From Candidatus Moraniibacteriota bacterium (GTDB taxonomy: Bacteria; Patescibacteriota; Minisyncoccia; Moranbacterales; UBA9337), in NCBI GenBank assembly GCA_028695135.1, contig JAQVJM010000002.1, forward strand, positions 14,249 to 78,248: a stretch of DNA of 64,000 nt, in the 5' to 3' direction. Shown here in pieces: positions 30,242-39,572 of this stretch; positions within the stretch are counted from its first letter, which is position 1; every line of letters starts with the position of its first letter. Position numbers and translations under genes: made by a program. The notes under the pieces are model-generated. The model searched no databases. It had not been told where the DNA came from and saw only the letters and a program-made list of their open reading frames with translations.

Positions 30242-31765
30242 ATGAGCAAATATAGCGCTACAATCGGGATGGAAATACATGTTGAGCTCAAGACCGAGTC
30301 CAAGATGTTTTGCAAATGCAAGAACGGGATGGGGGCGGAAAAGGAGCCGAATAAGAATATCTGCGAAGTTTGCACCGCTCATCCGGGGACTCTTCCTGTG
30401 CCTAATGAAAAAGCCGTTAGATTTGTCCAACTTGCAGGAATGGCGCTCAATTGTGAATTGCGAAAGGAGTCGAAATTTGACAGAAAGAATTATTTTTATC
30501 CGGATATTCCGAAGGGTTATCAGATTTCCCAGTACGACCAACCTCTATGCCAAAACGGAGTTTTGGAAATTCGAAATTCAAAATCCGAAATCCTAAACAA
30601 TAATCAAATTCAAAATTCAAATATTCAAACTAAAAAGATAGGTATTACTAGGATTCATCTTGAAGAAGATACCGGTAAGCTAACTCATCCCAAAGGAACT
30701 GGCTATTCTTTAGTAGACTTTAACCGTGCCGGTGTTCCGCTTATGGAGCTTGTGACCGAACCGGATTTTGAGAGCGGGGAGGAGGCCAGAATATTTTGCC
30801 AGAAGCTCCAGCAGATCTGCCGCTATATCGGCATAAGCGATGCCGATATGGAAAAAGGGCATATGCGTTGCGAGGCCAACATTTCTCTTCATAAAGAAGG
30901 CGAGGATAAGTTGAGCGGGACAAAAGTCGAAGTCAAGAATATAAATTCATTCAAATTTGTAGAAAAAGCGATCAATTACGAGATAGAGCGCCAGGCGGAA
31001 GCTTTGGACAAAGGCGAAAAAATTGTCCAGGAAACCAGAGGCTGGGATGCGAATCGGAACGCGACGATTTCTCAGCGAACCAAGGAGACCGCGGCCGATT
31101 ACAGATATTTCCCCGAGCCGGATATCCCGCCGATGAAATTCAGTGATGGCTATATTGAAAAATTAAAAAGGAATCTTCCCGAGCTTCCGGATCAAAAAAT
31201 CAAGAGATTCATGGAACAATATGGGATTTCCCAGGAAAATGCGGAGCTTCTTACGATGGAAAAGGGCTTGGCTGATTATTTTGAAAAAACCATAAGCGAG
31301 ATAGCAGAGAAAAGAGATGCGGGAGAAATTAAGGCCGAGGAAGAGAAGCTGATAAAGCTGGTTGCAAATTATATAAATACTGAATTGAGAAAGTATCTTT
31401 TTGAAAGCCAGGAAAAGATAGAAAGCATCAAAATTACTCCGGAAAATTACGCTGAGCTCATCGGAATTGTGGCGGATGGAAAAATTAATTCCAGCGCCGC
31501 CCAGACAGTTCTCAAAGAGATGTATGAAACCGGAGGGGATCCGTCCCAAATTATTGAAGAAAAGAATTTGGCGCAAATGGAAGATGATGGAGAAATGGAA
31601 AATATTATTGATAAAATCTTAGTGGATAACCAGTCTTCTGTTGATGATTACAAGTCAGGAAAAGAAAATGCTTTGAAGTTCTTGATGGGGCAAGTTATGA
31701 AAGAGACACAAGGAAAAGCCAATCCGCAAAAGGCGATGGAGATGATAAGGGAAAAATTGAAATAG
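30242..31765 (+). CDS. gatB: Asp/Glu-tRNA amidotransferase subunit B, with a ~20-aa low-complexity in-frame insertion
   Basis: YSATIGMEIHVELKTESKMFCKC, IGITRIHLEEDTGKL, C-terminal GatB/YqeY domain; insertion NSKSEILNNNQIQNSNIQT encoded by 30565-30630. Confidence 0.9.
   Translation: MSKYSATIGMEIHVELKTESKMFCKCKNGMGAEKEPNKNICEVCTAHPGTLPVPNEKAVRFVQLAGMALNCELRKESKFDRKNYFYPDIPKGYQISQYDQPLCQNGVLEIRNSKSEILNNNQIQNSNIQTKKIGITRIHLEEDTGKLTHPKGTGYSLVDFNRAGVPLMELVTEPDFESGEEARIFCQKLQQICRYIGISDADMEKGHMRCEANISLHKEGEDKLSGTKVEVKNINSFKFVEKAINYEIERQAEALDKGEKIVQETRGWDANRNATISQRTKETAADYRYFPEPDIPPMKFSDGYIEKLKRNLPELPDQKIKRFMEQYGISQENAELLTMEKGLADYFEKTISEIAEKRDAGEIKAEEEKLIKLVANYINTELRKYLFESQEKIESIKITPENYAELIGIVADGKINSSAAQTVLKEMYETGGDPSQIIEEKNLAQMEDDGEMENIIDKILVDNQSSVDDYKSGKENALKFLMGQVMKETQGKANPQKAMEMIREKLK
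30565..30630 (+). repeat. Copy of the AT-rich rRNA IVS repeat family embedded in frame in gatB
   Basis: AAAATCCGAAATCCTAAACAAT is 22/22 identical to 23S IVS1 (35898-35919); continued similarity (CAAATTCAAAATTCAAATATT) to IVS3. Confidence 0.7.
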
Positions 31766-35176: not shown

Positions 35177-35880
35177 GTATGAGCGTTCAAGATTTTTATT
35201 ATGATGTAATTTTTTAAAGATAATAAATTACTTGAAAAGACAACAAAACAAATCTAAATACAAAAGCGGGTGAATTTTTTTACAGCTATTTTTTAGTTGT
35301 CAAGAGATTGCTCGCCATTAAGGCGAGTTTTTTATTTGGTCCTGCGGATGGCGGAATTATGCGGAAGTCTGGACAAAATAATGTAAAATAGGAGTTGTGC
35401 CGAAATACTTTTTTGTGAATATTTCATGAAAAAATATTTCCGCGCAAATCCGGTAAGAATGATCCGGATGAAGCGAACCTTAAAAATTTAATATTGACCT
35501 ATTGAGTAGCTTTGATCCAGATCAAGCAATTGCGGAAAATCTGATCGGGGCCAAGAAATAGGCGTAGGTAAATCCTGCCGCTTTATCGGCGGCGGGAAAC
35601 AAAGCAATTGCAGTTGACGATCTTAAATGATTGTTAACTGTTAACTTTACCCCGTGTAATCCAGCTTTGCTGGTCTCGCTTGCGAGAATTTCACGGGGTG
35701 AATCCTGCCGCTTTCGAGCGGTGGGAAAAACAACAAAAAGGTTACTTAAGCGTATGGTGGATGCCTAGACTCGTGTGAGCGATGAAGGACGTAGCAGATT
35801 GCGATAAGCCTCGGGGAGCTGTCAAGCAAGCTTTGATCCGGGGATTTCCGAATGGGGAAACCCAGCCGTACATAGCACAG

Positions 35881-36012
35881 AAAATCCGAAATTTAAAATC
35901 CGAAATCCTAAACAATTTTAAAGTCCAAATAATTTAAATTTAAAAACTTTTTAAATTTAGAATTTGGAAAATTTTAATTTATTTAGAAATTGATGCTTTG
36001 AATTTCGAATTT
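35881..36012 (+). repeat. 23S intervening sequence IVS1 (AT-rich hairpin element family) in the helix 9/10 hairpin loop
   Basis: Interrupts the loop of stem CCGTACATAGCACAG/CCGTGTTGTGTGCGG; begins AAAATCCGAAATTTAAAATCCGAAATCCTAAACAAT, ends ...GAATTTCGAATTTC; internally self-complementary. Confidence 0.7.
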
Positions 36013-36382
36013 CCGTGTTGTGTGCGGTTACTATTATCTGAATTCATAGGATAATGGAGCAAACCCAGTGAACTGAAACATCTTAGTAGCTGGAGGAATA
36101 GAAATCAATAGAGATTCCGCAAGTAGTGGCGAGCGAACGCGGAACAGTCTAAAACTCGTCGCCCTCGGGCGACGGGTGGTTGCGAGATAATTGTACTCGT
36201 TTAATCGGGATTGCCTCATATTTTTTAGCAGAACGTTCTGGAAAGAACGGCCAAAGGAAGTAATAGCCTTGTATGCGAAAAAAAATATGAAGCGATGAAA
36301 TTATTCTCAAGTAAGGCGGGACCGGAGAAATCCCGTCTGAATCCGGGAGCACTAACTTCCAAGACTAAATATTACACGAGAT

Positions 36383-36419
<37 letters not shown>

Positions 36420-36492
36420 CATCCCGATAAGGGAGATGAAATAGTATCTGAAACCATATGTTAACAAGGAGTCAGAGCCGTACGTAGTACGG

Positions 36493-36623
36493 AAATCCGA
36501 ATATTAAAATCCGAAATCCGAAACAATATCAAAATTCGAATTGCAAAAATTCAAAAAAATTTTGAATTTAGAATTTTGAAAATTATGATTTGTTTAGAAT
36601 TTCGTGTTTAGAGTTTAGAATTT
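36493..36623 (+). repeat. 23S intervening sequence IVS2 (same family) in the helix 25 loop
   Basis: Interrupts stem GCCGTACGTAGTACGG/CCGCACTGCGCACGGC; begins AAATCCGAATATTAAAATCCGAAATCCGAAACAAT. Confidence 0.7.
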
Positions 36624-37817
36624 CCGCACTGCGCACGGCGATGGCGTGCTTTTTGCAGAACGAGCCAACGAGTTAGTTTTATACGGCTTGCATAAATTAC
36701 TCTGTAAGATATGCATAGTGAAAGCGAGGCTTAACCGCCGATTTTGTCGTATGGACTAGACCCGAATCCAGGCGAGCTACGCATGGGCAGGGCGAACCCC
36801 GAGTAACATCGGGGGGAGGCCCGCACCCACTGATCGTTCGACATCAGGGGATGACCTGTGCGTAGGGGAGAAATTCCAATCGAGCTTGGCTATAGCTGGT
36901 TCTCTCCGAAATAGCTTTGGGGCTAGCGTTCGTTAAATGAGCGCGGGAGGTAGAGCTACTGGATGAGTGTTCGCGGTTCGCCGTAGAACACTCAACCAAA
37001 CTCCGAATTCTTGCGTTTCTTATTCGAGCAGTCAGAAATCCGGCTCTAAGGTCGGATCTCAAAAGGGAAAAAGCCCAGACCATAATCTAAGGTCCCTAAA
37101 TTCATATTAAGTGGCAAAGGAAGTAGAGTTTCTTAAACACCTAGTAGGTTGGCTTAGAAGCAGCCATCCTTTAAAGAGTGCGTAATAGCTCACTAGCTTA
37201 GAGACTTTGCGCCGAAGATGTAACGGGGCTAAATATGATACCGAAGATATGGACCTGTCGCTCTCGAGCGACGGGTGGTAGGAGAGCGTTCTCTGTGAGC
37301 CGAAGCCAAAGGCGTGAGCCATGGTGGATCGCAGAGAAGTGAGAATGTTGGCATGAGTAACCGCAATGTGAGTGAGATCCTCACACCCCGAAAGTTCAAG
37401 GTTTCCTGGGCAATGGCAATCATCCCAGGGTTAGTCGGTCCTAAGGCGAGGCTGAAAGGCGTAGTCGATGGACATACGGTTAATATTCCGTGACTATGAT
37501 TACAATCGATGGAGTGACGCATTTTAGTAACTGTCGCATGTTATTGGATTCATGTAGGTTTTCTGAGGATGTATAGCAGGCAAATCCGTTATACATTAAG
37601 TCCAAGGAAAATCTGGACGCTTCTCTTCGGAGGAGCTAACGACAGCCAGCAGAGTGCCAGGAAAAACTTCTAAGATTATTGTTTTCATATCCGTACCGCA
37701 AACCGACACAGGTGAACAGGGCGAGTAGCCTAAGGGGAACGGGAGAACCTTCGCTAAGGAACTCGGCAAAAAATCTAGACGTAAGTTCGCGAGATGTCTT
37801 GCCAGTGCTTAGCACTA

Positions 37818-37938
37818 AAAATTCGAAATCCGAATATCGAAATCCGAAACAATATCAAAATTCAAATAATTAAGGGCCGTTTTGAATTTAAAAAATTTGA
37901 AAATTATAATTTGTTTTGAGTTTCGTATTTTGATATTC
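37818..37938 (+). repeat. 23S intervening sequence IVS3 (same family) in a domain IV variable helix (helix 63 region)
   Basis: Begins AAAATTCGAAATCCGAATATCGAAATCCGAAACAATATCAAAATTCAAAT; ends ...TTTTGAGTTTCGTATTTTGATATT. Confidence 0.65.
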
Positions 37939-38123
37939 GTGCTTTTGGTGCTATGCATTGGCCGCAGCTAAAGATTCCAAGCGACTGTTTATCAAAAACA
38001 CAGGTCTCTGCAAACCCGTAAGGGGATGTATAGGGGCTGACGCCTGACCAGTGCTGGAACGTTAACGGGAGCGGTGCAAGCCAATCCCCGAAGCGCCAGT
38101 GAACGTCGGCGATAACTATAATC

Positions 38124-38155
<32 letters not shown>

Positions 38156-38384
38156 ATTCCGACCCGCATCAAAGGCGTAACGACTTGGAAACTGTCTCAG
38201 TGAAGGACCCGGTGAAATTGCAATAACGGTAAAGATGCCGTTTACCTACGGCAAGACGAGAAGACCCCGTGGAGCTTTACTACAACTTGGCATTGAATTA
38301 AGATTCTGGCTGCCGAGAATAGGTGGGAGACTTTGAAACCGCGATCCAGGTCGCGGTGGAGTCGCCAGTGGAATACCACCCTGT

Positions 38385-38525
38385 CATTATTTTAATTCTA
38401 ACCCTGTGCTGTTAAGAGTTTGGTAGAAAGTATAAAGTAGCAAGTATAAAGTATGGCAAACCACAATATATATCTTAGTGTCTGAACATAATACATACTA
38501 CATAATACTTCCTGCTTGATTCTTA
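38385..38525 (+). other. ~90-nt expansion in the 23S helix 79 region containing (AAGTATAAAGTA)x2
   Basis: About 140 nt where E. coli has ~50 nt between GAAATACCACCC and CAGTGTCTGGTGGGTAGTTTGA. Confidence 0.45.
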
Positions 38526-38742
38526 CCAGCACGGGAACAGTGCCTGGTGGGTAGTTTGAGTGGGGCGCTCGCCTCCTAAATGGTAACGGAGGCGCTTACA
38601 AAGGTTGGCTAAGTCCGGATGGAAATCGGACTGATAGTACAAAAGCATAAGCCAGCTTTACTGAAAGACTAATAAGTCGCTCAGTTACGAAAGTAGAATT
38701 TAGTGAACCGACCATCGCTTGTAGGAGCGTGGAAGATCATCA

Positions 38743-38774
<32 letters not shown>

Positions 38775-38907
38775 AGTGCCCAAGAGTTCATATCGACGGC
38801 ACTGTTTGGCACCTCGATGTCGGCTCATCTCATCCTGGGGCTGGAGCAGGTCCCAAGGGTTTGGCTGTTCGCCAATTAAAGAGGTACGCGAGCTGGGTTC
38901 AAACCGT

Positions 38908-39166
38908 AAAATGGCTTTTTAGCTTTTAGAAAAAGGAAATTTTACAGTTTGAATCCGAGGTTATAGACATCACATCATGGCGGCTTTTGTTAGCAATAAC
39001 AAAAGAGAAGCTAACTAATATCGGTAGAATCCTAGCGAGTAATCGCGGACAATACCGAGGGAATTTGTCTAATTTGACAAAGCCCGTAGAGACTAGACGT
39101 TAGCCTCCATAATTATTTGTGGATGAAGTTATAGTCCAATGCACGCAGTAATGCGTGAAAAACATG
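38908..39166 (+). other. 259-nt ORF-less group-I-intron-like insertion at the classic 23S homing site (between ...AACCGT and CGTGAGACAG, E. coli ~2593)
   Basis: Exon junction matches E. coli GAACGT|CGTGAGACAG; 5' exon ends in U, insert ends in G; core-like elements AGAGACTAGAC (R-like) and AAGTTATAGTCC (S-like, cf. AAGAUAUAGUCC). Confidence 0.55.
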
Positions 39167-39572
39167 CGTGAGACAGGTTGGTCTCTATCTGCCGTAGGCG
39201 TTATTACTTGAGAGGATTCTTTCCTAGTACGAGAGGACCGGAAAGAGCGAACCTCTGGTGCATCGGCTGTTCCGCCAGGAGCAATGTCGAGTAGCTATGT
39301 TCGTAAGGGATAACCGTTGAAAGCATCTAAACGGGAAGCCTACCTCAAGATAAGGTAATTTATGTTTTCCTAGAAGAAGACTAGGTTGATAGGCTCTAGG
39401 TGTAAGCGTAGTGATACGTTTAGCCGAGGAGTACTAATAAACTAAAACCTTTTTTTGTTTTTGCTTAGTGGCATACTATAGTAGCCATTAGGAAAAAAGT
39501 TAACAGTTAACAGCCATTTATATACATCTGGCTGGAGCTTTTTAAAACCTACAATTTTTTTGAATATATGAT

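Follow-up and report, generated by a model that had tools for sequence, protein, structure and literature searches.

The stretch of Candidatus Moraniibacteriota DNA analysed here, 64,000 nt in length and referred to as the window, contains a full-length bacterial 23S rRNA gene (35735–39456) followed by a 5S gene, and the question raised by this locus is what kind of element interrupts the 23S sequence next to the catalytic centre of the ribosome. No 16S rRNA gene occurs in window positions 1–64000; the rRNA operon is thus unlinked, with the 23S–5S pair standing alone and a tRNA-Arg gene some 2.5 kb upstream of it. By 23S similarity and gene features, the host is most probably a member of the CPR (Patescibacteria).

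A first-pass annotation of the sequence had reported 259 extra nucleotides in this 23S gene, and the surplus was borne out by several means. The Rfam LSU model aligns 265 nt where 6 are expected, leaving a surplus of exactly 259 nt at 38908–39166, and MAFFT alignment against the 23S of Escherichia coli places the same interval. The E. coli copy used is 6 nt shorter upstream, so that its position 2587 is the standard U2593, and numbering of the site was anchored on U2585 and A2602. The insert lies between U2593 and C2594 in the loop of helix 93, directly after the closing pair and near A2602. Its 5′ junction reads GGGUUCAAACCGU (ending at 38907) and then AAAAUGGC (starting at 38908), while the 3′ junction reads AAAACAUG (ending at 39166) and then CGUGAGACAGG; a 5′ exon ending in U and an insert ending in G, both noted earlier, are seen in the sequence. 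Comparison with relatives lacking the insert, which had been suggested as a check, gave the same interval: 23S genes of about 89–90% identity lack exactly 38908–39166, as seen in full-length alignments of L196 and L167 (about 89.5% identical) and also of L141 (88%).

A covariance-model search, likewise suggested, returned the group I intron family of Rfam (RF00028) at 54.1 bits against a curated gathering score of 50 (E 6e-11 for the whole window), with a match that spans 38961–39158 and the full model (1–253). The margin is a narrow one, 4 bits above the threshold. Taken together with a full secondary structure backed by covariation, the L2593 insertion site, and the I-CreI-family genes of relatives, this match makes it very probable that 38908–39166 is a functional, compact, ORF-less self-splicing group I intron, with splicing itself predicted from the sequence. 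The structure was drawn by hand, with intron position 1 at 38908, and all of its pairs from P1 to P10 are standard pairs in the window sequence. Its features are as follows.

38895–38903, plus strand: 5′ exon positions −13 to −5 (E. coli G2581–A2589), part of the peptidyl transferase central loop; would pair with the antisense segment
38904–38907, plus strand: 5′ exon positions −4 to −1, CCGU, the 5′ strand of P1, pairing with GCGG at 38980–38983; U38907 (U2593) is the predicted 5′ splice site, in a U·G pair
38908–39166, plus strand: probable group I intron, 259 nt, without an ORF; 54.1 bits with RF00028 and 200.8 bits with the family-specific model R1; absent from the closest relatives
38908–38943 (intron 1–36), plus strand: hairpin starting from the splice site, within the P1 loop; basal 5 bp 84% paired, with compensatory changes in 4 of 5
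38947–38956 (intron 40–49), plus strand: antisense segment GUUUGAAUCC, complement of exon −13 to −4; covaries with exon variants
38975–38983 (intron 68–76), plus strand: internal guide, with the P10 guide UCAUG (38975–38979) followed by the P1 guide GCGG (38980–38983); P10 94.7% paired
38984–39005 (intron 77–98), plus strand: P2 hairpin with a GCAA (GNRA) loop; compensatory changes in 8 of 8 pairs, 91.7% paired in 150 sequences
39010–39015 (intron 103–108), plus strand: P3 5′ strand GCUAAC, pairing with 39099–39104; 5 of 6 pairs compensatory
39021–39058, plus strand: P4 (39021–39026 with 39053–39058; intron 114–119 with 146–151) around P5/P5a; P4 97.8% paired
39030–39049 (intron 123–142), plus strand: P5/P5a with a GUAA loop; P5 93% paired, 7 of 7 pairs compensatory; J4/5 is GAA and J5/4 is CAA
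39059–39085 (intron 152–178), plus strand: P6/P6a hairpin of 27 nt; 92.6% paired, six compensatory pairs
39089–39095 (intron 182 and 184–188, with A183 bulged), plus strand: P7 5′ strand G-A(bulge)-GACUA, pairing with 39132–39137 and forming a pseudoknot with P3
39099–39104 (intron 192–197), plus strand: P3 3′ strand GUUAGC, 3 nt (GAC) from P7
39106–39123 (intron 199–216), plus strand: P8 hairpin with compensatory changes; poorly aligned by MAFFT, 77% paired in the model-based alignment
39132–39137 (intron 225–230), plus strand: P7 3′ strand UAGUCC, with J8/7 UGAAGUUA just before it; invariant across homologues
39139–39165, plus strand: P9.0 (AUG/CAU; intron 232–234 with 256–258) around the P9 hairpin (intron 235–250), which has a GUAA loop
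39166 (intron 259), plus strand: terminal guanosine (omega G) at the predicted 3′ splice site; 33 of 34 occupied sites in an unbiased metagenome sample end in G
39167–39171, plus strand: 3′ exon CGUGA (C2594–A2598), the P10 partner, complementary to UCAUG at 38975–38979

These features include a P3–P9 core with a P3/P7 pseudoknot, supported by covariation; a P1 formed by an internal guide, with a U38907·G38980 wobble at the 5′ splice site; a terminal G39166 together with a 5-bp P10 (UCAUG/CGUGA); and a P7 G–C pair beside a bulged nucleotide (G39089, bulged A39090 and G39091, opposite C39136 and C39137) that is invariant in homologues. By analogy with introns of solved structure, the G–C pair next to the bulged A is the predicted guanosine-binding site. 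Only GAC separates P7 from the 3′ strand of P3, and P7.1/P7.2 are therefore absent; a single nucleotide lies between the P3 3′ strand and P8. The GNRA loops on P2, P5, and P9 resemble those of very compact introns, and the hairpin at 38908–38943 is present in the minimum-free-energy fold as well. Of the core elements proposed in the first-pass annotation, R (AGAGACUAGAC) is indeed the P7 5′ strand and S (AAGUUAUAGUCC) corresponds to J8/7 plus the P7 3′ strand. The proposed P element (AAUCGCGGACAA) was misplaced, being the 3′ side of P5/P5a together with J5/4; the true P4 strands are UCGGUA (39021–39026) and UACCGA (39053–39058).

The linker that joins the antisense segment to the guide (38957–38974; intron 50–67) carries a conserved motif, GAGG...AUAGACAUCA, which is also found in homologues and resembles both the exon (GGGUUCAGAC) and the J8/7–P7′ region (GUUAUAGUC). 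This linker can also pair with the antisense segment as an alternative hairpin. Longer relatives have a recurrent CUUUUCGUYU...GAUAGA motif at the linker position.

Comparative support for the fold comes from two alignments, one of which is an independent test of the structure: a MAFFT alignment (A1) of the window intron with 14 compact homologues and their exon flanks. In A1, 87.7% of cells are paired, against 35–44% when the 3′ partners are slid by 1–3 columns; compensatory changes on both sides occur in 48 of the 87 pairs, and none of 500 shuffles reached the observed value for any of five measures. The compensatory changes fall in P2, P3, P5, P6a, P9, and P9.0, with P4 and P7 nearly invariant. 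P7 is 100% paired among 15 homologues, with one compensatory pair (AU in 13, GC in 2), while P9 is 98.7% paired with compensatory changes in 4 of 6 pairs, and in P9.0 a G:C pair (7) alternates with C:G (5).

The second alignment derives from the family-specific covariance model (R1; 195 positions, 55 pairs), whose seed includes the window sequence. Its single match in the window scores 200.8 bits, and in most other loci R1 has strong matches that stop at the L2593 junction. Among the best 150 R1 matches, drawn from the window and 99 loci, 73 end at the L2593 junction. When these 150 sequences are aligned by the model, 88.4% of cells are paired, against 35–47% when slid, and 54 of the 55 pairs show compensatory changes; because this alignment is fitted to R1, A1 serves as the independent test. 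In many loci the model also has several weaker matches elsewhere in 23S, implying multiple group I introns per gene. RF00028, by comparison, passes only two of eight sampled L2593 members, the window intron (54.1 bits) and L104 (50.8 bits); at the gathering score it misses L092, L054, L088, L006, L115, and L183, to which the family-specific model gives 70–165 bits. Rfam-based censuses of the rRNA introns of CPR bacteria therefore probably undercount them.

The assignment of the guide is supported by the exons themselves. Within the close homologue set P1 shows no variation and is fully (100%) paired, and it covaries across exon types family-wide: among 127 distinct L2593 introns, 104 of the 110 with exon CCGU have GGCGG, and 13 of the 17 with exon ACGU have GCGU. 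That the guide changes with exon position −4 supports this P1. The five bases 5′ of the P1 guide complement the first five bases of the 3′ exon, as a P10 guide would, and relatives with a plain P1 have the same guide directly after a short hairpin.

By the canonical mechanism of the family, which we infer to apply to the window intron, the GCGG guide would pair with exon CCGU to form P1 with a U·G wobble at the splice site. The attack after U2593 would then come from exogenous guanosine docked at the P7 G–C pair beside the bulged A, and the UCAUG guide would align the 3′ exon via P10. G39166 would take the cofactor's place in the G site, and the exons would be ligated with restoration of helix 93, giving an expected junction of AAACCGU followed by CGUGAGAC. 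The antisense segment at 38947–38956 would hold the 5′ exon (−13 to −5) for the ribozyme against the exon–exon pairing of helix 93. Because CPR genomes usually carry one 23S copy (Tsurumaki et al. 2024, J Bacteriol, PMC11270868) and the insertion site abuts A2602, splicing should be essential.

The P1 loop has a feature beyond those of the first-pass annotation. In the window and in most compact relatives, it holds the segment GUUUGAAUCC, complementary to exon −13 to −4. The helix with exon −13 to −5 is 97% paired with two compensatory pairs among 15 homologues, and a perfect 9/9 complement to these positions is found in 70 of the 127 introns (55%), against 3.5% of shuffles. At exon −6, the exon base and its partner across the family are A:U in 47, G:C in 42, G·U in 12, and mismatched in 1, and the antisense follows the exon variants (CAGAC with GUCUG, CAAAC with GUUUG, UAGAC with GUCUA, and UAAAAC with GUUUUA). 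The pairing of antisense positions opposite exon −1 to −3 is not conserved, which suggests that −4 to −1 pair with GCGG while −13 to −5 pair with the antisense. From this we infer that P1 and the antisense helix make up a pseudoknotted, quasi-continuous exon duplex of 13 bp. The module is thus supported as a conserved pairing, and its functional role is putative: it may be an anchor, or a conformational switch opposing the exon–exon pairing of helix 93.

The module and an extension between the two strands of P7 hardly ever occur together, as judged from counts that are phylogenetically non-independent. A perfect antisense module occurs with a P7-to-P7′ distance of at most 70 nt in 59 introns and of more than 70 nt in 4, while a plain P1 occurs with the shorter distance in 3 and the longer in 25. 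The window intron, at 36 nt, contrasts in this respect with the plain-P1 members of more than 70 nt. L054 has two hairpins at the P7.1/P7.2 position, in line with the published cyanobacterial L2593 introns (Haugen et al. 2007, PMC1995217). A crude UPGMA of the ribozyme core does not cleanly separate the two architectures (distances of 0.33 and 0.37 within types and 0.40 between them). It is conceivable, and we put it forward tentatively as something short of probable, that the compact L2593 lineage uses a two-part recognition of the 5′ exon, in which a 4-bp P1 is combined with a 9–10-bp upstream antisense helix and this module replaces P7.1/P7.2.

Two other readings of the antisense segment were rejected. 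As a mimic (ACAGUUUGAAUCC) of the helix 93 3′ strand (ACAGGUUGG), it would not account for the conserved register, which is that of a plain antisense to −13 to −5, with no A2602-type bulge and no conserved pairing opposite −1 to −3. The long exon–antisense hairpin was also considered as the real P1, and it would give U–A, not U·G, at the splice site; GCGG was preferred because of its U·G pair, its covariation with the exon, the adjoining P10 guide, and its role as the sole guide in plain-P1 relatives. In a thermodynamic fold, where pseudoknots cannot be drawn, one long hairpin does run through the splice site with a U–A pair there (z = −4.2), and a two-state switch is therefore possible, as is an inactive conformer.

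That long hairpin bears on the strongest alternative to a functional intron, namely a decayed group I relic that no longer self-splices and either needs a host or trans-acting protein (a maturase) or splices poorly enough to limit ribosome production. The P1 with only four exon base pairs counts against the functional reading, and a relic would likewise be in keeping with the competing hairpin around the splice site, the marginal Rfam score, the lack of an endonuclease or maturase ORF, and the absence of P7.1/P7.2, which stabilise the G-binding pocket in IA introns. Set against this, the core elements are intact, with purifying selection and compensatory changes throughout the compact lineage, and the same compact architecture is found in at least 59 other species; moreover, a non-splicing insert by the peptidyl transferase centre should be lethal where there is usually one 23S copy. 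A relic is thus unlikely.

Less likely again is an intervening sequence or expansion segment that RNase III cuts out with the exons left unligated, so that the 23S is fragmented, or that stays in the ribosome. Insertions of the IVS type have been noted in CPR 23S genes (Tsurumaki et al. 2024, PMC11270868), and the same 23S gene has other inserts resembling such elements. The ends of the present insert, however, form no long processing stem in the fold, the sequence folds as a group I core with a pseudoknot, and it ends in G after P9.0, as do 33 of 34 occupied sites. The site, moreover, is the loop of helix 93 next to A2602 and not a surface helix. Given the missing terminal stem and the catalytic-centre location, this interpretation was rejected, and the self-splicing intron is retained as the preferred reading.

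The other inserts form a separate group of observations. Three of them (35867–36014, 36485–36633, and 37803–37945) represent a single AT-rich repeat, about 145 nt long and 76–79% identical between copies, at sites near E. coli 132/helix 9, 540/helix 25, and 1725–1763. The copies are self-complementary, each forming a long hairpin (z −3.1 to −3.9), and relatives with 23S of about 89% identity lack all three. A partial copy is also located at 30565–30631, inside an ORF (30242–31765). The repeat looks like a MITE-like or IVS-like hairpin that colonised rRNA surface helices. Another insert, at 38412–38527 (110–116 nt relative to E. coli, near 2206), is unrelated to this repeat in sequence and, unlike the others, is present in close relatives.

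The site occupied by the window intron is a familiar one for introns, and the earlier identification of the region around E. coli 2593 as a known LAGLIDADG insertion site was well founded: it is L2593, the homing site of the I-CreI family, and relatives carry I-CreI-family genes there. The window intron itself had been described as ORF-less, and the longest ORF is indeed 38 aa, with none longer on either strand. A tblastn search of the whole 64-kb window with the endonucleases of relatives returned nothing at E below 0.6 and no gene remnant, and a decayed endonuclease gene within the intron or elsewhere in the window was thereby rejected. The element thus falls outside mobile group I introns that carry a LAGLIDADG gene.

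In relatives, by comparison, about 30 of the 104 L2593 inserts measured among the matches listed are 670–830 nt long with an ORF of 120–250 aa. These intron ORFs carry a LAGFLDGDGS motif, and the ORF of L115 matches the PDB sequences of I-CreI (about 1e-24) and I-MsoI (7e-34). The ORF lies between the strands of P6 in all mapped ORF-bearing members, including L115, L050, L103, L058, and L053, at the place where the window intron has its 27-nt P6 hairpin. L115 and L050, which are among the GTDB species with the most similar 23S exons, possess this ribozyme in an ORF-bearing form. The window copy, having no endonuclease gene, cannot promote its own homing; it would be either the leftover of an earlier invasion or an element mobilised by an endonuclease provided in trans. 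L097 has a further insert, encoding a LAGLIDADG motif (IAGFLDGDGS), that starts about 60 nt past its L2593 junction, behind CCUAGU and near E. coli 2657.

The distribution of the family was surveyed in one genome per species, the search being for 3′ exons preceded by G where U2593 would stand. Matches occur in at least 120 species, mostly Patescibacteria, with some Acidimicrobiia, Omnitrophota, Chloroflexota, and others. Most listed inserts show detectable similarity to the window intron, and no identical copy is among them, the best intron match being 78%. The 104 inserts with both junctions recognisable among the matches listed range from 213 to 1034 nt, and about 70% of them are below 600 nt. 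The description of the window intron as minimal therefore stands insofar as 259 nt is near the small end of this range, and falls short in that smaller ones exist. The accompanying expectation that CPR rRNA introns are usually larger and ORF-bearing did not hold up, given the small size of most of these inserts and an Rfam-based survey in which 433 of 968 insertions in CPR 23S genes were group I introns, 222 without and 211 with an ORF (Tsurumaki et al. 2024, PMC11270868).

Occupancy of the site was also assessed in metagenomes. A lineage-specific 29-mer probe just 3′ of the junction had no match in metagenome contigs, and a broader probe starting exactly at the 3′ exon was used instead. It yielded an unbiased sample of 118 23S genes of this exon type, 84 with an empty site and 34 occupied by an insert. 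The site is empty in each of the 14 genes with the most similar 3′ exons (86.6–94.5% identity); an occupied one first appears at rank 15. Such patchy, mosaic occupancy is as expected of mobile rRNA introns. The nearest relatives of the window (L196, L167, L146, L141, and L159), all without the L2593 intron, have an insert of their own, of 806 or 334–343 nt, after the equivalent of window position 38133 (about E. coli 1917–1931), where the window has none; that of L141 scores 67.5 bits as a group I intron. Finally, an assembly chimera, in which another organism's intron was joined into this 23S gene, is scarcely credible: although the flanking exon is nearly identical across many CPR lineages and could mislead an assembler, and no near-identical copy of the intron is found elsewhere, the antisense segment (GUUUG) fits the exon variant of its host (CAAAC), both junctions are precise, and to either side of them the 23S gene is full length.

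Among known systems, the I-CreI-encoding intron Cr.LSU from the chloroplast 23S gene of Chlamydomonas reinhardtii occupies the same homing site, and the 3′ exon CGUGAGACAG belongs to the I-CreI target. Cr.LSU is organellar, ORF-bearing, and 888 nt long. The endonucleases in relatives of the window intron belong to the I-CreI/I-MsoI family. The cyanobacterial L2593 introns of Synechococcus C1/C9 and Thermosynechococcus are about 745 nt long, with an endonuclease gene and a P7.1/P7.2 extension of about 65 nt (Haugen et al. 2007, PMC1995217). They are group I introns at the same 23S site, share a short P5 and a P2 with the window intron, and are linked to a single-motif LAGLIDADG endonuclease. 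The window intron is 259 nt long, has no ORF, and has just 3 nt between P7 and P3′, with the 5′ antisense module instead. Lacking the P7.1/P7.2 extension, it differs from the IA-type L2593 introns of the cyanobacterial type.

The closest counterpart is the class described in the survey of Tsurumaki et al. (2024, PMC11270868), of which the window intron is an instance with respect to host group, gene, and insertion position. In that survey, insertions were found in 82% of CPR 23S genes, position 2593 was a hot-spot for LAGLIDADG_1, and introns with and without an ORF, sharing one site and highly similar apart from the ORF, were spread across the phylogeny; classification was by Rfam only, without analysis of secondary structure or peripheral domains. 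The class is therefore already known in CPR 23S genes, and the window copy is an ordinary example of it. It agrees with the known picture: self-splicing introns are tolerated by CPR bacteria even where their sole 23S gene is most conserved, and copies without an endonuclease outlast the invasion. Inserts of this kind should be anticipated in rRNA-based surveys and in annotation.

The exon–antisense module may be the only new part of this intron, and a limited literature search found no description of a natural upstream exon-binding helix. If the two-part recognition of the exon is true, it would be a natural case of a minimal ribozyme securing a strand that is otherwise locked in rRNA structure, and designers of trans-splicing ribozymes could draw on it. 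In engineered trans-splicing group I ribozymes, an extra antisense duplex beside P1 increases the hold on the substrate (PMC3895272, PMC6155759). Those extended guides are artificial, lie at the 5′ end of the ribozyme, and pair downstream of the splice site, whereas the antisense segment of the window intron is natural, belongs to the P1 loop, and has its partner in the 5′ exon, upstream of P1.
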